Below are positions 11,041 through 56,046 of a stretch of DNA of 64,000 bases, in pieces (positions within the stretch are counted from its first letter, which is position 1; each line of letters begins with the position of its first letter). The translations under genes and the position numbers were made by a program. The notes beneath the pieces are model-generated. The model did not search any database, was not told the origin of the DNA, and saw nothing but the letters and a program-made list of their open reading frames with translations. The DNA comes from Lytechinus pictus (lineage: Eukaryota), in NCBI RefSeq assembly GCF_037042905.1, contig NC_087251.1, positions 6,078,001 through 6,142,000 on the forward strand, read 5' to 3'.

Positions 11041-11124
11041 ATGGCCGATAAAATATCTGATGTCAGTGTTTCTCTTTGTTCGAGTTCTAAGTATGTGACA
11101 CCTTTCCGACTGCTATATAAACAG
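11041..11124 (+). CDS. NUDT14: NUDT14-like UDP-sugar diphosphatase, coding exon 1
   Basis: Reads MADKISDVSVSLCSSSKYVTPFRLLYKQ, then donor GTAAGT. Resembles the recalled NUDT14 N-terminus (..SPYLRPLTLHYRQ). Phase-0 join to exon 2. Confidence 0.88.
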
Positions 11125-11283
11125 GTAAGTCTAGCTACGGTTATTTTTTTTTCAACACTGCGGGATCCCGACCCGAGACTGCCAAAAAAAAGACTTTACC
11201 TAGGCTAAGTTGGAAGTTGGACTTGGAGTTAGCGCAGCCAAAAGTTCAAAACCTCGATTCCTACCACAGTCACAGAGTCAGAG

Positions 11284-18037: not shown

Positions 18038-19530
18038 TTTTTGTCTCGCCCACCAGAGGTGAAGGCGAGACTTAGGGATCCAAATGTCGTCCGTCCGTCG
18101 TCCGTCTGTCGTCCGTCCGTCACAAACCTAAAGACACATAACTCCACAACGGTAAGTCGCTTTTCAACCAAACTTGGATGGTAGATGGACTTGGGGGACC
18201 TGCATGTTATGCTGCAGTCGGAGGTCACATGGTAAGGTCAAAGGTCATTTTCAGGTCAACGTTAAAGTTTACATGCAAGACTCTCTGACACCTAACTCCG
18301 CAACCGTAAGTCACTTTTCAACCAAACTTGGATGGTAGATGGACTTGAGGGACCTGCATGTTATGCTGCAGTCGGAGTCACATGGTAAGGTCAAAGGTCA
18401 TTTTCAGGTATACGTTAAAGTTTACATGCAAGACTCTCTTATGACACCTAACTCCGCAACTGTAAGTCACTTTTCAACCAAACTTGGATGGTAGATGGAC
18501 TTGAGGGACCTGCATGTTATGCTGCAGTCGGAGTCACATGGTAAGGTCAAAGGTCATTTTCAGGTCAACGTTAAAGTTTACATGCAAGACTCTCTTATGA
18601 CACCTAACTCCGCAACCGCAAGTCGCTTTTCCACCAAACTTGGATGGTAGATGGACTTGGGGGACCTGCATGTAATGCTGCAGTGGGAGGTCACATGGTA
18701 AGGTCAAAGGTCATTTTCAGGTCAACGTTAAAGTTTACATGCAAGACTCTCTGACTCCTAACTCCGCAACCGTAGGTCACTTTTCAACCAAACTTGGATG
18801 GTAGATGGACTTGGGGACCTGCATGTTATGCTGCAGTGGGAGGTCACATGGTAAGGTCAAAGGTCATTTTCAGGTCAACATTAAAGTTTACATGCATGTC
18901 AACGTTAAAGTTTACATGCAAGACTCTCTGACTCCTAACTCCGCAACCGTAAGTCACTTTTCAACCAAACATGGATGGTAGATGGACTTGGGGGACCTGC
19001 ATGTTATGCTGCAGTCGGAGGTCACATGGTAAGGTCAAAGGTCATTTTCAGGTCAACATTAAAGTTTACATGCAAGACTCTCTTATGACACCTAACTCTG
19101 CAACCGTAAGTCGCTTTTCAACCAAAATTGGATGGTAGATGGACTTGGGGGGCCTGCATGTTATGCTGCAGTCGGAGGTCACATGCTAAGGTCAAAGGTC
19201 ATTTTTAGGTCAACGTTAAAGTTTACATGCAAGATTCTCTTATGACACCTAACTCCACAACCGTAATTCACTTTTCAACAAAACATGGATGGTAGATGTA
19301 CTTAGGCGACCTGCATGTTATGCTGCAGTGGGAGGTCACATGGTAAGGTCAAAGGTCATTTTCAGGTCAACATTAAAGTTTATGTGCAAGGTTCTTATGA
19401 CAAGTGTTATTCCATCCCAGCCATTTCACAATGAAGTTTCGATACAATTCTGTTGCGTGCCCTCGCAAATCACGATATTTCTGGTTATTTTCATAAGTGG
19501 GCGAGACACAAAATCACTTTTGCCATGTTT
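18038..19530 (-). mobile_element. Helentron-like element containing ~8 tandem ~156-bp units
   Basis: Terminal hairpin gtctcgcc...ggcgagac (18043-18071) and a second subTIR gtgggcgagac (19497-19507). The cctaactc motif recurs near 18291, 18447, 18603, 18757, 18934, 19090 and 19248. Confidence 0.75.
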
Positions 19531-20096: not shown

Positions 20097-21800
20097 ATCA
20101 TCATCATCATCCGTTAAAGTACAGTCTACCAGGTTGGTGTATCATCGTACTTGTAGAATTGTGCAGGAGTATGTACAGTGCTGTGGAAGATCTATTCTAC
20201 GTGCAGTTAAAAGAATCAGCGCAGTCTTGGCTCAATTGGATTTTCTGCACCTCAGCCTTGAAGCTGGCTACTGAAGTGCAGTTAACTGTAATGGCAGGGA
20301 GAGTATTCCACAGTCTAATGGCATCAGGAATAAAAGTTTTCTGATATGTAACAGTGCGAGCATGTGGGACGTGTAACCTCATTTGATGACCACGAAGCGA
20401 GGTGAAAGTAGCAGCCTGGTTGAATTAAGTACTGTACCGTTGGTACATCAACAATTGCGTTTACCAAGCGATAAACCATCACCACCTTGAACTGGACTCT
20501 TCTTTCTTCAAGGGTGGGCCACTGTAGCTGTCGTAGCATATCGGTGACACTACTAGTGCGATGATGGTCTCCCATGGTGAATCTAGCATATCGTCGCTGC
20601 ACCATCTCCAGCTTCCGGGTGTTGTCCTTGGTGAAGGGGTCCCACACTTCTCATCCATATTCAAGGACAGGTCTGAGGAGAGATTTGTTACATAGAACCT
20701 TGACACTTTTGGGAATGAGTGCAGGTTACGTTGCAAGAAGGCACGTGTAGAGTTGGCCTTCTTGGTGGCCATGCTAATATGGAGGTTCTACTTCATGTTC
20801 TGATGAATATGAACACCAAGGTATTTAGCAGAGCTGACCTTTTGTAAATGTTGATCATGAATGGAGTATGTCATGTTTAGTGGTTTCCGCTTGTTGGTTA
20901 CTGAGATAGTTTGACACTTCCGAGGATTGAATTTCATAAGCCAGTCTGACTCCCACTTCTGCAAAGAGTCAAGATCCTCTTGGAGTTTGTTGGCATCATC
21001 CTAAGATTTGATCTTGCGGTAGAGTAGACAGTCATCGGCAACAGTTGGGTTGTTGTCTGAGATGAAATGCAATCAAGCAGATCATTGATGTAGAGTAGAA
21101 ACAGGAGAGGGCCGAGGACACTGCCTTGCGGCACGCCTGACGAGACTGGGATAGTATTTGAGGTACATCCATTGAAGACTACCCTTTGAGTTCTGTTGTG
21201 GAGGAAGTCTTGAATCCAGCGCAGGGTAGTAAGACGAAGGCCGTAGAACTTCAGTTTGTATAGAAGTCGGTGGTGAGGGACTTTATCAAAAGCCTTCAAA
21301 AAATCCAAAAGGATCATGTCTTGCTGTTTGCCTTTGTCAAGGCCTTTGGCAAGGTCATCACAGGTGAAAATGAGTTGGGTGATACAAGAACGTCGCTTAC
21401 GAAATCCATATTGAGCATCTGTTATAATGTTATTACTATCCAGGTGATCCATAATAGAGCTGCAGAGAACATGTTCTAGGACTTTGCACGAGATAGATGT
21501 CAGAGATTTGGGTCTGTAGTTCTCTGGATTACTCCTATCTCCTTTCTTGAACACGGGAGCAACATTTGCCATTCTCCAGTCATCTGGAATAATGCCTTGA
21601 TGGATAGATGCTTAGAAGAGTATTGTAAGCGCTGGGGTGATCTCATCAGCAGGTGTTTTCAGTAATCTGGCTGAAATTCCATCTGGGCATGTTGCTTTAT
21701 GAGGATCAATTCTGGATAACAGTTTATCGACACCAGTTGGAGAGATGTCAATTTCACCCATATGTTTATGTATTAAGTTCGGATAAACCAGAGAAGTGGG
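20097..21800 (-). mobile_element. 5'-truncated, frameshifted CR1-clade non-LTR retrotransposon (RT domain)
   Basis: ORF 20934-21572 has RT motifs (PVFKKGDR..NYRP.SLTS, LDF.KAFDKVPH, GVPQGSVLGPLLFLLYINDL) and continues in shifted frames (LEMVQRR, FIPDAIRLWN). A (TGA)n tail lies at ~20097-20110. Confidence 0.9.
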
Positions 21801-24909: not shown

Positions 24910-24953
24910 GATGGTGTGAAAAAGACATGGGACTACATCAAAGGACATGACAG
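24910..24953 (+). CDS. NUDT14: NUDT14-like, coding exon 2
   Basis: tag|GAT...GAC AG|gt, reading DGVKKTWDYIKGHD(S); compare recalled NUDT14 NGAQKSWDFMKTHDS. Confidence 0.9.
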
Positions 24954-26280: not shown

Positions 26281-26345
26281 CATTGCAATTCTCCTATACA
26301 ACAAGGACAGGGATGTATTTCCAGTTGTAAAGCAATTCAGACCAG
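26281..26345 (+). CDS. NUDT14: NUDT14-like, coding exon 3
   Basis: cag|C ATT...CCA G|gt, reading IAILLYNKDRDVFPVVKQFRP with the conserved VKQFRP motif. Confidence 0.92.
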
Positions 26346-26569: not shown

Positions 26570-26777
26570 CGGTGTATGCAGCCAAAATCCAGGCATTCAC
26601 TGATGGACAAATAGTGGACACTGCCAAGCATAAAGGAGAGGAAGGGATGTGCATTGAACTTTGTGCAGGGATCATGGACAAGAATAAAGATGTTACAGAG
26701 ATGGCTCAAGCAGAGGTCTTAGAAGAAACAGGTTACAAAGTTCCTCTGGAAAACCTCAAGAAAATAACAAGTTTCAG
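26570..26777 (+). CDS. NUDT14: NUDT14-like, coding exon 4 (Nudix box)
   Basis: Reads AVYAAKI...ELCAGIMDKNKDVTEMAQAEVLEETGYKV...ITSF(R). Phase-2 donor AG|GTAAGC. Confidence 0.93.
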
Positions 26778-26883
26778 GTAAGCTCTGATTAAGTATGAAA
26801 CAGTTCAGCTATGTATGTTATCTTTATTCAGACCTGTATACTGCATTCTTTTGATTTCTTCATTAGAAAACACAGAATTGTTT

Positions 26884-27240
26884 GGCCCGAATTCACAAAG
26901 GTGGTTTTTAAAACCCACGGTTGAGTCCATGGTTTATGCAGATTTCATGTATAAATTACGCTTAATTTAGCGTGTATCGGGCGCGTGTATAAAATGTGTC
27001 AAATGCTGATGCGCGCTTTGGTCACAGTGCGCCAAATTGACGCAGTCCACTCTTCAAACAGTGGACTCATGAATAAAATAGCATATCTAACCATGGTAAC
27101 AGGCGTCAATTTGGCGCATTGTGACAAAAGCGCGCATCAGCATTGGACATTTTTTATACACGAGCCCGATACGCGCTAAATTAAGCATAAACCATGGACT
27201 CAACCGTGGGTTTTCAAAACCACCTTTGTGAATTTGGGCC
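26884..27240. mobile_element. Near-perfect palindromic MITE (PIF/Harbinger-like termini) in NUDT14 intron 4
   Basis: ggcccgaattcacaaaggtggttttt..ccacggttgagtccatggtttatgc / gcataaaccatggactcaaccgtgg..aaaaccacctttgtgaatttgggcc; the inner arms are also complementary. Confidence 0.8.
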
Positions 27241-27547
27241 TTTATGTTTCTGATTCACTTTATTTATCTGTAATTTGATAACAGCTACATTTAATAAAAA
27301 AAGACATTGCTTCATGAATAAAATTTACAATTAGAATGGAAAAAGAGTGACCTTTCAAATTTAGTGTTAGCTACCAATCTAAATGTATATTCAGAGGGGT
27401 TTCAATAAAATTAAATGGAACAATTAGTTTAGTCGTATCAATTGAAAACTTGATTATGACATACGCAGTTTCACTTGAACTTACTTTTCTAGTGTCTTGA
27501 ATATATAAAATAATAAATGATGGTGAAATGTATTTTCTGTTTTCTAG

Positions 27548-27785
27548 ATGTGGAGTAGGCACAGAAGGAACCGAACAGACATTATTTTATGCTGAAGTTA
27601 CCGATCAAATGAAAGTCAGCAGAGGGGGTGGTTTGGTTGAAGAAGGCGAAATGATTGAGGTCATTGATCTCAGTCGCCAGGAGGCCTTAAAATGCATTAT
27701 GGATGAGACAATTGCTAAACCATGTGGAATGATGTTTGCATTTACATGGTTCTTCTTTATGAAAGACAAGGAAGAGACATCATGA
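27548..27785 (+). CDS. NUDT14: NUDT14-like, terminal exon 5a
   Basis: ttttctgttttctag|A TGT (phase 2), reading CGVGTEGTEQTLFYAEVTDQMKVSRGGGLVEEGEMIEV...FAFTWFFFMKDKEETS*. Confidence 0.9.
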
Positions 27786-28025
27786 TGATGACGACTTTAA
27801 TTTTTTCAATATAATTCTTCCTTTGATGCAATTTTTTAAAAATCTACTTTTGCAATATTATTGTCTGTAACCGTAAATGTCTGATTCCAAGTTTAAAGCA
27901 AATTTAACTGCCCATTTTAATGTAGTACAGTAAGCTTGAGTACAGTAAAGACATAAATATAGCCTTTACTAATTAAAATGAGTAGAGTATATGCGCAATG
28001 AACTGTATTTGGTAATCATGCACAG

Positions 28026-28254
28026 GACTGGAGTCGGTGTGAAGGGAACCTTGCAGACACTGTTTTATGCTGAAGTTACCGATCAAATGAAAGTCAGTTC
28101 TGGTGGGGGATTAGTGGATGAAGGTGAACAAATTGAGGTTATTGAAATCAGTGGTCAGGATGCCTTAGAGACCATTATGGACGAGACCATTACCAAGCCA
28201 GTGGGAATGATGTTTGCATTCACATGGTTCTTTTTCATGAAGGACAGAAAGTAG
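28026..28254 (+). CDS. NUDT14: NUDT14-like, alternative terminal exon 5b
   Basis: atgcacag|G ACT (phase 2), reading TGVGVKGTLQTLFYAEVTDQMKVSSGGGLVDEGEQIEV...FAFTWFFFMKDRK*. Intact. Confidence 0.8.
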
Positions 28255-28765
28255 AATTTTGGTATTACAGCTGATACTTGCAATAGATTCATGTAACAAC
28301 CAAATACTATGGTTAGTTTCACTATTTTTATTTTGAAAAAAAAAATACTGATGCTACAATCTGTAAGCATTTGGTGTATGAATTTGACCTTTGGAAACAA
28401 TTAATCATACAAAATTTGTGGTTTTGCAGTTTCTAAAAAGTCAATTTGATCAAATTATAAAATCTGTGAACAGATATTCAGTGAAGGTGCAATGCATGAG
28501 AGATTGATTAAGATTGTAAAAAAACATTCGTAAAATATCGTAAAAAACACATTCCACACCACATATCTGTTATTAACTGTATAAATGTGAAAAAAGTGTA
28601 GCACAAATTTTAATGCATGCATGTATGTAATTTTATTGCAGGTATCTTGTACAAAATATATACATTGCAGGCGTCATTGAAGTTTGGGAAAGTGATTTTG
28701 GAATGAGTCTTGTGATCATGAGTAGGTTATTAATGGACGAGTCTTGTTTTCACATCTATGTACAG

Positions 28766-29009
28766 GAATGAAGTTGGTGTGAATGGAGCATTGATGACAC
28801 TGTTTTATGCTGAAGTTACCGATCAAATGAAAGTCGATTCTGGTGGGGGATTAGTGGATGAAGGTGAACAAATTGAGGTTATTGACCTATCAGGCAAAGA
28901 TGTAATAAGACACATGATGGACGAAACTATTGAAAAGCCAGTTGCCATGATGTTTGCCTTTACCTGGTTTTTCTTCATGAAAGGTAAAAGGGATATATAC
29001 ACCAGATGA
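28766..29009 (+). CDS. NUDT14: NUDT14-like, alternative terminal exon 5c
   Basis: atgtacag|G AAT (phase 2), reading NEVGVNGALMTLFYAEVTDQMKVDSGGGLVDEGEQIEV...FAFTWFFFMKGKRDIYTR*. Intact, with AATAAA at 29681. Confidence 0.8.
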
Positions 29010-32000
29010 AGAATCATATTATATTTGTGGACTCTTGTGGAGGAAGTTGAATGGATTGAGGTTACTAAACTTCTCCTTTACATTGTTCCAACTGCACAAG
29101 TGTTGGCCAAGGCCAACACTTCTGCAGCACTGGTTTTACAGTTTTCATTCATTAATTCATTTATTTGACCAGAGTAAATGTTTCCCTTTTTTCTGTACAT
29201 GGAAGTGAAAGCAAAACCATGAATACAATTTTTTAATATGACATGCTGATTATGAAAAATGAGTCAATGAAAATATCTGTTTGCTGCATATTAGCTCATT
29301 GTATATTTGATTTTCTCACTAAAAAGGGGAACTAAAGAGCTTTAAAAACACAATGAATCTTCTGCCATAGGCCCATATGCATTAGGATACTATAATCATG
29401 TAGCTGTAAAATATGTTCAAGTGATATTGTCATACAATCCTTATTTAAAAGTGAATGTATAGAAAAGGAAAAGGACCACTGGTATGTGTATAAACATTTA
29501 GTTGTGTTTTTTTTGGCAAATATTGTGAAATGAATGTTGAATCAAGAAGCTGAAAATTATTAATCATTCTAGTGAATATGTTATCCAGGGTAAGGATCCA
29601 GGAATTATGTGAATAGTTGAGTTCTTGAGCTGGTCCTATCTGTTTAAAGTGAACATGTTAGCTTGGCTTGAATATGTAAGAATAAAAATTAAACAGGATG
29701 TATTTACTAGAGAGAGCTTTTTCATATTTGTAAGTTTCTGTCCATAGCAAAATTTGATGAGTTTCAGAATATTGCATAAAAATTAATTCCACAATTTAAC
29801 CGGACGGTTTTTTTCAATTGCCTAAATTATCAAACTTGAATTATCATTTTCCCTAGAGACGGCATGTTTGACTCCTTTTTTATTCTTGAGAGAAGTTTAG
29901 AACAAGGGATGCCTCTTTATGGTGTACATGTAACTGAATTCAACTTGCAGAGTTGCAAACACATCAAAGTTGAGTCACATGCAGGAAATTTTGGGTTCTT
30001 ATTTTTGCAGCATATTTATCTATGTCCATATATACTCTGTGTCAGGCACATATTCTCAATAGGTTTCAATTGTACCATGTACAAAACCATAAGCTATGCA
30101 GATGTTTGTACATAATTACACTTATTTTATTGCATGCATGAAGAAAAATCACCTTTGCTTTTGGCAAAGTGTAATAATATGAAGAATTCTGCATAGTCCA
30201 TGATTTTGTACCATGGTACAATTGAAACCTCTGGTAGAAAAAGTATCACTGGTATGTCTCATTTGCAATTGTCATACATGTAAGTATTGGTAATTTCACA
30301 GCATCAAGTGTCAAGGTATAGAAATGATTAAATGTCAGCCTTACTGCTATAGATGATTTTAAAGTTCTTTATTAAAGCTAATTATTTCAAAGGAAGAATA
30401 TCAGCTATTAAGGATTTTACTTCAAATTTTATTGGGAATTTTTATTTAATTACGACTTATGATACTCAGGGATATGAATCAGAGAATGTTTCAAATTCTT
30501 ATTTTTCAAACCCAGGTTTGCTCACCATCAAACTGGGAGAGCCAGATTCACCCCCACACTCACAGCTATTGCGCTTAACCGTTTCTGAACAATTCATTGC
30601 CCCCTCCCCCTTCTACTCTCTTCTTCTGCATGCTTCTTTGGCTGTCTCCTCCTTGAATTCAAAAGCCCCTCTTAAAACATGCCTATCATCTCTCCCCTGC
30701 GTTAATGCCTTCATACCCCATTTGCCTTCACCAACCAGTTCACCACTATTTCTTAACACAGCATCTGCATAATCAACTCTGTATTCTTGTTATCCATCAA
30801 CTTCACACCACACATTGCGCTTCCTTGTCATCAAATCCCCATCTCATTTTCACTCAAACACAATGTCAGAAATATTCCATCTATCTCACTCAGGGGGGGG
30901 GGGGCCACTTACATTGAATGTGGATTCCATGTGCGACCAAAAAAACATGTAAAAAGGATGTCTTTTTTAAGATAGGGCACGTTACGTACGTAACGTAATA
31001 AGGGCGTCAAAAACACTGAAATAATGAAAAAAGGGTATCTATTTCGCTAGGAAAGCTACGTGTTTAGGGTCAAATTTGCGAGGGTATAAAAAATCAAGAG
31101 TTGGGCTGTACTAAACCCAATGATGTAGGTAAAGGTAAAACCGAGTCTGTGACATAACATTGAAATATCGCTGTACTTGTTTAGGGGTTCAATTCAGGAA
31201 ATACTTGCCAATAGTATCGTTTTGTTTCCAATACTTGTTAAGGGTAGGGTTTCACACGCAAATACTTGTTAAGGGGTGCATTTTCAGAATGTGGAAAATA
31301 AGATACATTTACGCCTTATAGAGCAGCTTGCAAGTATCCTGTCGTGGATTTTATCCAACTTTACTGATATTTTCTCTTATTTTTCTGATTATTCAAGAGG
31401 GTGGACTTCCCCTTTGAATTAAAAGGATTTAAAACGTCAGAATTTAATGAGAGAAGAGATATATATATACATTGCAATGGAAAGCCTGTTCGAAAATTGT
31501 GTACAAAAACATTGTTGTCAAGTTTAATTATAAATAGCATGTTTAATGTGCTAATTCTTGTATATATTTGTACATCTATAGAGAGACATTTAAATAAATG
31601 AATATGAAATCCATTGAAAGAGTTTGTAGTGTGCATATTTGTCTGGTTCAGATGTATGAGTGACAAGGGTAAACAAAGAGGTGTAGTTCATTTTAATGGC
31701 ACTCTGCAAGTGAGTATAAAATAAAATGTAATTTATGTACATTTTTAGTTAACAGAGTAATCCTTTCCATTTGGATAAAATGGGGGGGGGGGGGGTCATG
31801 CTTGATATCTGTTGCCATTCCCAGCCTCAAGTACTCGAGAAAACCATACTTTTGATGCAAAAGCAAAAAATTATAATTCTTATTTTTACATCCAGTTTTA
31901 CTTTCATTTTCACTTTCATTTTCATCTTTCCTTTTGTGGGTTGAAATGTTGTAGAACTGCTGGGAACCAAATCTTTATCAAAACTTCTTTTAACGCTTTT

Positions 32001-38039: not shown

Positions 38040-39736
38040 TGCATACTTATTTACTTCTTTCATACATAGTGATTTTTTTGCAGTTTAGTGCTCATTTTTG
38101 TGAAAATTAGTTTTCCCTATTCATATTGTACATAATAGAGTATACAATGGCCTATGGCGGCCATTTTGAATATCAGGAAAATAAATATTTTGTCAAAAAT
38201 TATTTTTTATGATTGTATATTTCACTCCTGCCACACAATTTCATGCATTTCATAGCCAATTTGCAGACAATTTTATGATTTTCATGGGTAATTTGCATAT
38301 TTTGGCGGCCATATTGGATTTTGCCAATTTGCGGAAAATGCTCAAGGTTACACGAGTGACATCATCCAGACTCTTAATCAGCACCCTCGAATTGACAACA
38401 AACCATCAAAAATATTGTAAATATCAAACTAGCACATCAATGATGTGGAGCTCATCCGGCATCTCGCAATGAAATTTAACACAATTTTTATTTCAGCCCA
38501 GTTGACACTATAGTGAATTATATTGGTGACATAAATTGAGGTCTTTGAGGATATAGAATTGAAATTGATGGAAGAAATGACATAGAAGCATTTTTGTGAT
38601 CTATGAATAAATTTCATATAAATTAAGCATAAATAATTTTCTAGTCAAAATTTCATAACTCTGTGTAGTGTGTAGAACCTTGGTGAACCTCATGTAGCTC
38701 TCAGATGGAACAAAAATAATCAAAATCAATCAACAAATAAATAAGTAATTTTTGTGAGTTTTGAAAATATATGAATAAATTAGCATATTTAATGGGTTTC
38801 AAAATTCTGTGTTGAAATTTTGTATCACCACCTCGAGCTATCATATAAAGCAAACAAAATTGAAATTGATCAACAAATGATTTGTGATTTATGAATAAAT
38901 TTTGCATAAATTAGCACAAATCATTTTCCAGAAAAAATTTTGTCTACAAGTTTGGTGAACCTCATGCAGTTCTACCAGATGGAAGAAAAAAAAATCAAAA
39001 TCGGTCAACAATTAAAGAAGAAAAAGCATTTTATGTGAATTTTTAGAAATATGAATAAATTAATTTTGCATAAATTAGCATAAAAATTGTTCTAATCAAA
39101 ATTTCAAAATTCTGTGTAGAAGTTTGGTAATCTCATGCAGCTCTACCAGATGGAAGAAAAAAAATCAAAATCTGTCAACAAATAAAGAAGAGGCATTTTC
39201 TGTGATTTCTGAATAAATTTCGCATAAATTAGCATAAATAATTTTCTACTGAAAATTTGTGTAGAAGTTTGGTGAACCTCATGAAGTTCTACCAGATGGA
39301 AGAAAAAAAAATCAAAATCGGTCAACAATTAAAGAAGAAAAAGCATTTTATGTGAATTTTTAGAAATATGAATAAATTAATTTTGCATAAATTAGCATAA
39401 AAATTGTTCTAATCAAAATTTCAAAATTCTGTGTACAAATTTGGTAATCTCATGAAGCTCTACCAGATGGAAGAAAAAAAATCAAAATCGGTCAACAAAT
39501 AAAGAAGAAGCATTTCTTGTGAATTTTGACAAATGTGCATAAATTAGCATATTTAATGAATTTCAAAATTCTGTGTAGAAGTTTTGAATCCCCCACCTAG
39601 TGCTATCATATAAAGCAAACAGAATTGAAATCGGACTTGAAATGGCGAAGAAGAAGCATTTTGAAATTGTGAACAGACGACAGACGCCACGCCATGGCAT
39701 AAGCTCATTTGGACCTTCGGGCCGGATGAGCTAAAA
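38040..39736 (+). mobile_element. Helentron-like element with internal AT-rich tandem units; a related inverted fragment lies at 1-350
   Basis: Recurrent ctaccagatggaagaaaaaaaatcaaaatcggtcaacaa units and a 3' hairpin agctcatttggaccttcgggccggatgagct followed by an A run. Left boundary is approximate. Confidence 0.65.
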
Positions 39737-53526: not shown

Positions 53527-56046
53527 CAGGGTGACCAGATTTCACAAAATGAAATACGGGACAATCGACAAACAGAAGGGTACACAGTGTTAGACTTGTG
53601 AGAAAAAAAACTAAAGAATTGGAAGGGAGGGTGAGCGAAAGAATGAAGTAGAGAAAGAAAAGAGATGAATTGAGACGAAAGAAAGAAAAAAATGACGGGG
53701 AAAATGAAGGGAAAAATAAAAGAAAGAATAAAAGAAGGATGAAAGAAAGAATTAAAGAGAAAAAAAATGTTTCCGTCATTCTTTGAAATGAATATAGAAA
53801 GAAAGAAAAAAGGAAGGAAGGGAAGATGAACAAATGTGTGAAAGACAAATAAAGCAGAGATAGGAAAAAAGAAATTAAAAAAAAAGGAGGAGGAAAGAAA
53901 GAAAGAATGAAGGAAAGAAAAATGTTTCTTTCATTCTCTGAAAGAAAGAAACTAAGAAAGAAGAAAAACAGGAAGGAAGGAGGGAAGGAAGGAAAAGAAA
54001 GAATTAGAAGGGAAAAATAAAACAAAGAATGAAAGAAAGGAGGAAAAAGAGGGAGGGAAGAATGAAGGGAGGAGAGAGTGAAAAAAGAGAAAATATTGGA
54101 AGGAGATAAAGAACGAAAAGAAAAGGGAGAGGAAGGGAGAAGGAAGCAAAGAAAAGTTTAAGGAAAGAAAGAATGAAGCAAATAAAAACTGATATTTAAT
54201 ACAGAAGGAAAGAAAGAAAATGAACACAAAGAGAAAAGGTCAGGAAAGAAAGAAAGATGGAACAAAAAGGGCAAGCAGGATGGATAGAAGGATGAACAAT
54301 GAAGGATATAAAAGAAAGAAAGCAAAAAAAAGTTCAAACTTCAAGGAAACAAGACAAATCCAATCATCCAACAAAAGTCATAATGATATTTGGTGTTTTT
54401 GAAAATGTATTTTAAAATTAAAACAAGTGGAATGCCTCTGGCGGTCTCACCTGCATCACGCGATTCAATATAGCAGCAGTGCTGACTTTGAAACCTACTG
54501 TAACTCGCACAAGATGTTCAGTCATACTTGGTTACTCTTATGTCCACGTTTTATGAACTAGACCAATACACTTACAGAGATATCATGGTAATTCAACAAA
54601 TACCCCCAATTTGGCCGAAGTTCATTGACCTTATATGACCTTTGACCTTGATTATGTGACCTGAAACTCGCACAGGATGTGCAGTGATACTTGATTACTC
54701 TTATGTCCAAGTTTCATGAATCAGATCCATAAACTTTCAAAGTTATGACGGTAATTCAACAGATACCCCCATTCGGCCAAAGTTAATTGACCTTTGACCT
54801 TGGTCATGTGACCTGAAATGCGCACAGGATGTTCAGTGATACTTGATTACTATTATGTCCAAGTTTAATGAAGTAGATCAATATACTTTCAATGTTATGA
54901 TGGTAATTCAATAAATACCCCCAATTTGGCCAAAGTTCATTGACCCTAAATGACCTTTGACCTTAATCAGGTGACCTGAAACTTGCACAGGATGTTCAGT
55001 GATACTTGATTACTATTATGTCCAAGTTTCATGAATCAGATCCATAAACTTTCAAAGTTATGATAGTAATTCAACAGATACCCCCAATTCGGCCAAAGTT
55101 CATTGACCCTAAATGACCTTTGACCTTGGTCATGTGACGTGAAACTCATGCAGGATGTTCAGTGATACTTGATTAACCTTATGTCCAAGTTTCATGAACT
55201 AGGTCCATACATTTTCTAAGTTATGATGACATTTCAAAAACTTAACCTTAGGTTAAGATTTTGATGTTGATTCCCCCAACATGGTCTAAGTTCATTGACC
55301 CTAAATTACCTTTGACCTTGGTCATGTGACATGAATCTCAGGCAGGATGTTCAGTAATACTTGATTAAACTTATGGCCAAGTTTCATGAACTAGGTCCAT
55401 ATACTTTCTAAGTTATGCTGTCATTTCAAAAACTTAACCTTAGGTTAAGATTTGATGTTGACGCCGTCGGAAAAGCGGCGCCTATAGTCTCACACTGCTA
55501 TGCAGGTGAGACAAAAAACTAAATTGTTTTAGAAATGAATAAAATTTCAAAGTGAAACATAGTCAAACTTAAAAATTAGATGAAACATCGCGGCATCATA
55601 CACACCAAGACTCAAAACGAAAGCTGAAACAACTAGATCTATGAAAACTCAATAACTTGTTCCTCCGATTACATCTCCAAATCGGCAATCTGTTAATCCA
55701 TTATAATATGATTTTAAAAATTATTTTCCCGCCGATTTTGTGATTATTTTGGTTGAAAAACTGTTTATCATATCATGTGTGCACCACTGAGAATCTGCTC
55801 CAATCCTACATGCCTAGCTAGAAGCCTGCCACACACAGGCAGGAGTTAACAGTTATCAATTTTATTGTCTCTGCTTCGTCATCTGTTGGTTATTTGATGA
55901 AAATTTGTCACTTTTAAATGTATTAACTACATTTTGTTCAAATACTCTGAAATACAGGACAAATAGGCGTCCCGGTAAGGATATGTCGGGACAAAGGAGC
56001 AAAATACGGGACGATCCCGGGAAATAAGGAACGTCTGGTCACCCTG
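53527..56046. mobile_element. hAT-like MITE with GA-rich interior, hosting a Helentron-like insertion
   Basis: TIR cagggtgaccaga...tctggtcaccctg; TSD CACCCAGG / CACCCGGG (7 of 8 match). Confidence 0.8.
54421..55516 (+). mobile_element. Helentron-like element with ~155-165-bp tandem units; family fragments also at ~360-602 (-) and ~42830-43070
   Basis: subTIR gtctcacctgcat near the 5' end and atgcaggtgagac in the 3' hairpin; repeated tgacctttgacctt...caggatgttcagtgatacttgatta units. Confidence 0.75.

Follow-up and report, generated by a model that had tools for sequence, protein, structure and literature searches.

The question raised by this stretch of DNA is whether a single enzyme gene that carries its last coding exon three times in a row supplies three versions of one protein. 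The stretch, called the window below, comprises 64,000 nucleotides of the sea urchin Lytechinus pictus (contig NC_087251.1, positions 6,078,001 to 6,142,000) and is AT-rich, with a GC content of about 30-43%. Within these 64 kb lies a single NUDT14 gene, on the + strand. Searches of the window with full-length relatives (tblastn) returned exons 1 to 4 in one copy each and exon 5 in exactly three, which confirms the architecture that an earlier note had read from the letters. The three-exon array is real, expressed, old and under selection, and it is probably functional. The coding parts of the gene, with RNA run X20 and the putative X-loop treated further below, are:

11041..11124, + strand: NUDT14 exon 1, coding part; start codon ATG at 11041, donor GT at 11125; 28 residues, 96% identical to the Lytechinus variegatus protein P0002 (tblastn)

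24910..24953, + strand: NUDT14 exon 2, located by tblastn; encodes DGVKKTWDYIKGHD, with a Trp-Asp pair matching W34/D35 of the base pocket of human NUDT14

26281..26345, + strand: NUDT14 exon 3, located by tblastn; in 28 reads of run X20 the end of exon 3 forms the loose end at the start of exon 4

26570..26777, + strand: NUDT14 exon 4; Nudix box GIMDKNKDVTEMAQAEVLEETGY; the donor GT at 26778 is common to all three junctions

27548..27785, + strand: terminal exon 5a; 238 nucleotides, 78 residues, stop TGA, acceptor tag/A, putative X-loop CGVGTEGTEQ

28026..28254, + strand: terminal exon 5b; 229 nucleotides, 75 residues, stop TAG, acceptor cag/G, putative X-loop TGVGVKGTLQ

28766..29009, + strand: terminal exon 5c; 244 nucleotides, 80 residues, stop TGA, acceptor cag/G, putative X-loop NEVGVNGALM

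Intron 1 spans 13.8 kb. Each of the three copies of exon 5 is open in frame 1, has the same phase, is preceded by an AG acceptor and ends with its own stop, as terminal exons should; translation into 78, 75 and 80 residues thus bears out the YAG acceptors, shared phase and intact frames proposed in the earlier note. Since exon 4 ends in AG, every junction builds an arginine codon (AGA or AGG). The three peptides align without internal gaps, 48 of the 80 columns being invariant, and the identity to 5a amounts to 77% for 5b and 67% for 5c; in DNA the copies are only 69-81% identical to one another. Local alignments between the exon copies reached z = 60-100 (200 shuffles), far beyond chance, whereas the 240 nucleotides upstream and downstream of each copy gave z <= 1.4. 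Only the coding part has therefore been kept, and the impression that the spacers are unalignable around intact frames proved correct. Variation among the copies is concentrated in exon-5 residues 1-10 (cluster 1) and in a helix at residues 177-185 of the structural model described below (cluster 2), and the C-terminal tails differ as well (KDKEETS, KDRK and KGKRDIYTR). Exon 5a is the copy nearest the ancestral type and has the strongest polypyrimidine tract, with a pyrimidine share before the acceptor of 0.76, against 0.53 in 5b and 0.65 in 5c. The named L. pictus protein P0123 ends in a tail identical to the 5c peptide.

A profile of the exon-5 peptides, searched against longer proteins, gave eight matches. 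Seven are sea-urchin proteins from Lytechinus, Strongylocentrotus and Diadema, named "uridine diphosphate glucose pyrophosphatase NUDT14(-like)", and the eighth is an unnamed protein from an ENA contig. The L. variegatus isoform of the 5a type (P0002) shows 100% identity with the window in exon 4 and 95% in 5a (tblastn), and it matches the solved structure of human NUDT14 (8otv_A) over residues 3-203 with E = 1.6e-46, a likeness along the full length. The active-site residues Y17, W34 and D35 of the human enzyme align with identical residues in the urchin protein, encoded by exons 1 and 2 of the window. In the accessible text of PMC11089510 these three and L107 are given as the base pocket of human NUDT14, and the counterparts of all four lie within the constant exons. 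Compared with the Nudix box motif GX5EX5[UA]XREX2EEXGU of the same source, the box in exon 4 agrees at G, A12, E15, EE and G and departs from it at E6, R14 and the last U. By these likenesses the gene is NUDT14, a Nudix hydrolase of the uridine diphosphate (UDP)-sugar/adenosine diphosphate (ADP)-ribose diphosphatase type, with its activity predicted on the same ground.

The part of the protein encoded by exon 5 was placed on a model calculated with AlphaFold2 (AF2) from an alignment of 60 of about 150 proteins. The model (mean predicted local distance difference test 94.2, predicted template-modelling score 0.88) has the two-domain fold of NUDT14 and matched human NUDT14 (9gzv_A) in Foldseek with E 3.4e-26 and a template-modelling score of 0.89. 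Exon 5 begins at model residue 135. The two clusters of differences stand at the positions given in the earlier note, with a minor correction: exon 4 starts at 26570, the Nudix box lies inside it, and exon 5 follows 15 residues past the box. In the model, exon 5 is laid out as a loop (136-141) and a strand (142-151), which together hold cluster 1 and the putative X-loop, followed by a loop with GGG and E-G-E (152-169), a strand (170-176), the surface helix of cluster 2 (177-185), which lies outside the catalytic loop, and a further helix (193-212). Residues G160-162 and E168 do not vary in any of the 60 rows, residue 166 is E or D, and the GGG...E-G-E loop is present in 5a, 5b and 5c. This acidic loop is presumably catalytic, as in ADP-ribose pyrophosphatase.

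In a MAFFT alignment, the segment SPGGTSE of Escherichia coli NudF, an ADP-ribose pyrophosphatase, is aligned with CGVGTEG at the start of exon 5. According to the accessible text of Srouji et al. (PMC5389931), the proline of ADP-ribose diphosphatases lies within the X-loop, a stretch in contact with the X moiety; in the dimeric E. coli enzyme, every active site has the X-loops of the two subunits extending to it. On this alignment, exon 5 would open with the X-loop, a recognised specificity element, which in NUDT14 appears to be swapped by splicing. The residues swapped in this loop are unusual for the family. Among 51 non-echinoid rows, comprising animal and bacterial relatives, residue 140 is S, A, T or G in 48 and charged in none; at this position the echinoid a copies have E, the b copies K or R and the c copies N. 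Residue 136 is G, S or A in 49 of the 51 rows and E in 5c, and residue 142 is S in 34 of them and T, S or A in the echinoid copies. At residue 183, in the surface helix, all 51 rows have F, L, Y or M, and echinoids have C, T, H, Y or F. Human NUDT14 (PDB 8OTV, 9GZV and 3Q91), whose base-pocket Y, W and D are conserved in the urchin protein, has the X-loop SGVGLTGS, in which the positions occupied by E, K or N in the echinoid copies hold small neutral residues.

The use of the three copies was followed in RNA. Two stranded raw runs (X19 and X20) were chosen by their species label, and about 6 in 100 of each were read. Two contig runs (X1 and X12) were also aligned; their nature is presumed, and gaps in them, such as the absence of 5a from X12 and of 4>5a contigs from X1, are uninformative. 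All three predicted junctions of exon 4 were found, the one to 5c thinly:

26777>27548, + strand: junction 4>5a; 9 reads in run X19, 12 reads in run X20, no contigs

26777>28026, + strand: junction 4>5b; 0 reads in run X19, 5 reads in run X20, one contig each in X1 and X12

26777>28766, + strand: junction 4>5c; 1 read in run X19, 1 read in run X20, one X12 contig (depth 33.4)

The three junctions are of the GT..AG type, and every read over the gene has its first mate on the - strand. Exon 5a is dominant in both raw runs, with 21 of the 28 junction reads. The share of 5b is 0 of 10 junction reads in X19 against 5 of 18 in X20, a gap too small to call. Depth is zero across the unique part of intron 4 (27270-27489) in each of the four runs, and both spacers between the copies carry reads.

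The copies do not resemble three clean last exons with separate polyadenylation, as transcripts continue past the end of a copy into the one that follows. Contigs of run X1 are colinear with the genome, with zero differences, over 27590-28052, 28116-28825 and 28856-29799 and beyond, and hence some RNA spliced to an upstream copy holds the downstream copies as 3′ untranslated region (UTR). Among the 15 joints listed out of 50, none departs from the 3′ side of any copy, where the run-X1 contigs continue colinear with the genome. Two elements bear on the 3′ ends:

27972..27977, + strand: ATTAAA, the sole canonical poly(A) hexamer between 5a and 5b; candidate signal

29010..29799 and beyond, + strand: 3′ UTR after 5c, from read depth and an X1 record of 1378 letters, 944 of them aligned

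Neither AATAAA nor ATTAAA occurs between the stop of 5b and 5c. After 5c, AATAAA stands at 29681 and ATTAAA at 29688, 30327 and 30371. The depth of run X1 rises stepwise along the array (8.2, 13.7 and 21.8), in keeping with a common distal poly(A) site; such steps are lacking in the raw runs, where the spacer between 5b and 5c has a depth of 0-3. The formation of 3′ ends in the three-copy array is thus only partly resolved. The RNA also departs from the window within the copies themselves. At 27623 it has T for A in 13 of 13 and 27 of 27 reads, which changes codon 25 of 5a from Arg to Ser, the residue of the relatives; at 28051 it has A for T in 7 of 13 and 8 of 20 reads, which changes X-loop codon 9 of 5b from Leu to Met.

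Although the earlier note implied that this arrangement was unrecorded, NCBI lists NUDT14 isoforms X1-X3 for L. variegatus, X1-X4 for Strongylocentrotus purpuratus and X1 and X2 for Diadema antillarum. These share residues 1-134 and differ exclusively in the exon-5 tail, and the types of tail match 5a, 5b and 5c of the window. The annotated 5b- and 5c-type tails of L. variegatus and S. purpuratus are intact. Over 72 aligned residues, 5a differs from L. variegatus X2 at 4 positions, from S. purpuratus X2 at 10 and from Diadema X2 at 16; 5b differs from L. variegatus X3 at 1, from S. purpuratus X1 at 9 and from S. purpuratus X4 at 10; and 5c differs from L. variegatus X1 at 2 and from S. purpuratus X3 at 9. 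The paralogs within the window differ from one another by 15-22 of the 72 residues, more than each copy differs from its Lytechinus or Strongylocentrotus ortholog. Three species have the X-loop NEVGVNGALM in identical form, and conservation of CGVGTEG extends to Diadema.

A maximum-likelihood tree was calculated from 17 tails, three near-duplicate rows (two of L. pictus and one of D. setosum) being excluded. It united all echinoid copies (support 98/97), the b and c types with Diadema X1 (98/96) and the c type (99/95), and left the b group unresolved; tails from brittle stars, sea cucumbers, acorn worms and molluscs fell outside the echinoid group. The best explanation is that the last coding exon was tandem-duplicated within the sea-urchin lineage. 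In the light of echinoid phylogeny, the split between a and the ancestor of b and c is therefore very old, and that between b and c precedes the divergence of Lytechinus and Strongylocentrotus. Isoform X1 of S. purpuratus combines a b-like first half with an a-like second half, an apparent chimera which indicates that recombination at the level of the exon continues. An old S. purpuratus model of 347 residues strings the exon copies a, b and c in order. Each of the named L. pictus entries represents a single form, of the 5b type in P0003 and of the 5c type in P0123; the 5a type is absent from them.

The three copies are under purifying selection, as had been suspected from their intact frames. 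Ratios of nonsynonymous to synonymous substitution (dN/dS), estimated by the method of Nei and Gojobori (NG86) over 72 shared codons, are 0.12 for a-b, 0.10 for a-c and 0.25 for b-c, values that are rough because dS is saturated and gene conversion has intervened; the orthologous types are also kept in other sea urchins. Between 5b and 5c, the proportion of synonymous differences (pS) is 0.95 in codons 40-72. Farther upstream, 28056-28145 in 5b and 28796-28885 in 5c, about 90 nucleotides, are identical save for two adjacent bases, while the 3′ halves are synonymously saturated. The central identity is likely a recent gene-conversion tract. At the protein level the same mosaic of 5b and 5c is present in L. 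variegatus and absent in S. purpuratus.

Moreover, a run of 33 nucleotides is identical in all copies, synonymous sites included (27585-27617, 28063-28095 and 28803-28835). It could be due to gene conversion or to a constraint at the level of RNA. No pairing partner was found near this core, duplex energies with six neighbouring regions lying inside the range of shuffled sequences, and in a search for docking and selector pairing, short AT-rich matches apart, no inverted repeat connected intron 4 with the copies. A remnant adjoins the array:

29037..29071, + strand: probable relic of a further exon-5 copy; 28-35 nucleotides matching the VDEGEQIEV part of 5b and 5c

It lies 28 nucleotides past the stop of 5c, whose frame it shares. 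Of 500 shuffles each, 0 attained its score in the comparison with 5b and 1 in that with 5c. It may be a decayed fourth copy, truncated by deletion.

In our judgement it is rather probable that NUDT14, its exon 5 having been duplicated in sea urchins, is spliced to one of the three copies at a time and so yields isoforms that differ in sugar preference or kinetics. The one donor of exon 4 is spliced to any of the acceptors at 27548, 28026 and 28766; since each copy has its own stop, only the first copy after the junction is translated, and the downstream copies left in the RNA are 3′ UTR. The three proteins share exons 1-4, with the N-terminal dimer and base-binding domain and the Nudix box, and differ in their last 75-80 residues. 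There, all isoforms keep the catalytic GGGL-x-EGE loop and the hydrophobic C-terminal helix, and the X-loop and one surface helix change. The isoforms may accept different X moieties (sugars) or differ in kinetics, the weak acceptors of 5b and 5c may be the regulated ones, and mixed dimers may have hybrid active sites. A fuller version of this proposal, which we regard as possible but on balance doubtful, is that of a splice-selected enzyme set, in which acidic, basic and neutral X-loops would confer different sugar preferences while base binding and catalysis rest on one identical scaffold, mixed dimers would contribute hybrid sites, and gene conversion would keep the catalytic centre identical while the specificity parts diverge.

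Several observations weigh against the proposal of splice-selected isoforms. Raw support for junction 4>5c amounts to 2 reads in total, under the listing threshold of the aligner, and junction 4>5b has none in X19; the contig joints have just 25-30 letters on their short side, and 35 further joints and 331 loose ends outside the listing may include other acceptors. Depth climbs to about 6 in both X19 and X20 at 28590-28699, before the acceptor of 5c, from near zero at 28370-28589. This rise may mark a transcript start or a further acceptor; near 28640 and 28670 there are AG sites accompanied by pyrimidine runs. Regarding selection, dS between the copies is saturated (pS 0.6-0.95), codons 11-39 of 5b and 5c show 0 synonymous differences over 19.3 sites, and in codons 1-10 the proportion of nonsynonymous differences (pN, 0.27-0.53) comes near pS (0.27-0.69), a pattern that by itself fits relaxed and diversifying selection alike. 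The dN/dS values compare paralogs within the window, and the copy number in the outgroups was taken from annotated proteins only. Finally, Pfam NUDIX scored 18.6-19.8 bits, below its cut-off of 21.1, with single exons and whole isoforms all falling short, and the assignment of the X-loop stems from a MAFFT alignment at 25% identity and a paper that, in its accessible text, deals with other Nudix enzymes (PMC5389931).

In one alternative, the isoforms are real and their proteins functionally equivalent, the array acting, if at all, through different 3′ UTRs and expression control or being tolerated splicing variety. In its favour, no copy departs from the others in the catalytic loop or core residues, 5a takes 21 of the 28 raw junction reads, downstream copies are carried as UTR, and pN is near pS in codons 1-10. 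Equivalent proteins would hardly be expected, however, to hold type-specific residues across genera (NEVGVNGALM in three species, CGVGTEG to Diadema) or to change at positions where 51 other family members hardly vary, and the overall dN/dS is 0.10-0.25; we consider this alternative unlikely. Slightly less likely again is that the module serves, by way of helix 177-185 and the C-terminal tail, to tune dimer pairing, stability, localisation or the binding of a partner protein. That the second variable cluster is a helix away from the catalytic loop, that the tails differ in all three copies (KDKEETS, KDRK, KGKRDIYTR) and that residue 183, F, L, Y or M in 51 of 51 other rows, is C, T, H, Y or F in echinoids would all agree with such a role, yet the most unusual substitutions sit in the X-loop.

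The weaker polypyrimidine tracts of 5b and 5c and the few junction reads of 5c are what unused or decaying pseudo-exons might show, but the frames are open, intact tails of both types are annotated in L. variegatus and S. purpuratus, the junctions are present in RNA, dN/dS is well under 1, and an apparently decayed copy adjoins for contrast at 29037-29071, all of which makes pseudo-exons very improbable. Hardly credible at all is an assembly artefact in which haplotypes or reads were stacked in tandem. Sea-urchin genomes are highly polymorphic and many sites differ between the RNA reads and the window; nonetheless, DNA identity among the copies is no more than 69-81% and their spacers are unrelated, the X1 contigs cross 27590-28052, 28116-28825 and 28856-29799 free of differences, and the same array is annotated in other species.

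Homologous alternative 3′-terminal exons are a known class. They form type B of Pillmann et al. (2011), exemplified by human CAPZB (PMC3228551), and include Drosophila pip and PGRP-LC (Ivanov and Pervouchine 2022, PMC9013439). As far as the accessible texts describe these genes, they resemble the window in having tandem terminal duplicates of similar length, phase and sequence, of which one is used per mRNA as an alternative C-terminal module, and pip, like NUDT14, encodes an enzyme. The window differs in that the swapped part is the putative specificity loop of a Nudix hydrolase, in that RNA reads through the copies, and in that our searches revealed no competing RNA structure. With classical mutually exclusive internal exons, as presented in the accessible parts of PMC9741552, PMC8373072 and PMC5740500, the array shares old tandem duplicates, homologous substitution in one domain and strong conservation; those clusters have a downstream exon and a mechanism against double inclusion, whereas in the window the stop in each copy does that work. 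As no exon follows the copies, the NUDT14 array falls outside the definition of a classical mutually exclusive cluster. In Drosophila aldolase, three alternative fourth exons give three isozymes, and our search returned no relevant paper on it; it is likewise a metabolic enzyme with three tandem alternative C-terminal exons, in a different enzyme and phylum.

The isoforms listed by NCBI for S. purpuratus (X1-X4), L. variegatus (X1-X3) and D. antillarum (X1, X2) represent the same gene and the same event. They are database predictions without a description, and S. purpuratus has a fourth, chimera-like form (X1). A literature search, whose scope left aside subscription journals and supplements, found no publication on the NUDT14 exon array, and our searches brought up no alternative form of exon 5 in human NUDT14. 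The isoforms are already in databases and apparently unstudied. Homologous alternative 3′ exons are a known class, and no new principle is involved. NUDT14 itself is called "largely unstudied" in the accessible text of PMC11089510. The idea that the X-loop sets the choice of substrate, found in that of PMC5389931, has so far come mostly from the comparison of distant enzymes. The window presents three natural versions of the loop on an otherwise identical protein, and S. purpuratus offers four, each version having been kept at least since the split of Lytechinus and Strongylocentrotus. Such a set is a ready and inexpensive means of testing the X-loop idea, and it offers a lead to the role of NUDT14 in an embryo model in which isoform-specific knock-down is routine. 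The stop in each duplicate also permits a one-of-N choice of protein without the machinery of internal mutually exclusive exons.

A variation of another kind was seen in the oyster Crassostrea virginica, whose NUDT14 isoforms X1 and X2 (P0148 and P0149) are of equal length and differ only in the stretch with Trp-Asp that corresponds to exon 2 of the window. The pair suggests independent alternative exons at the other end of the substrate site. Elsewhere in the window, ten long open reading frames were scanned, one of which has a family. The other elements recorded are a palindromic repeat resembling a miniature inverted-repeat transposable element (MITE), a retroelement fragment and three tandem repeat arrays. 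The MITE-like repeat has RNA and contig depth in the thousands, on both strands and with many variants, which marks it as a member of a large expressed repeat family.

26884..27240, no strand assigned: palindromic MITE-like repeat in intron 4, outside the exon array; arms of 56 nucleotides (96% complementary) and 88 nucleotides (91%)

20934-21611, - strand: retroelement fragment inside intron 1, an open frame with RVT_1 (E 6e-27)

18133-19402: tandem repeat array, 157-nucleotide unit, 8 copies

38883-39551: tandem repeat array, units of 170/317 nucleotides

54498-55461: tandem repeat array, units of 163/315 nucleotides

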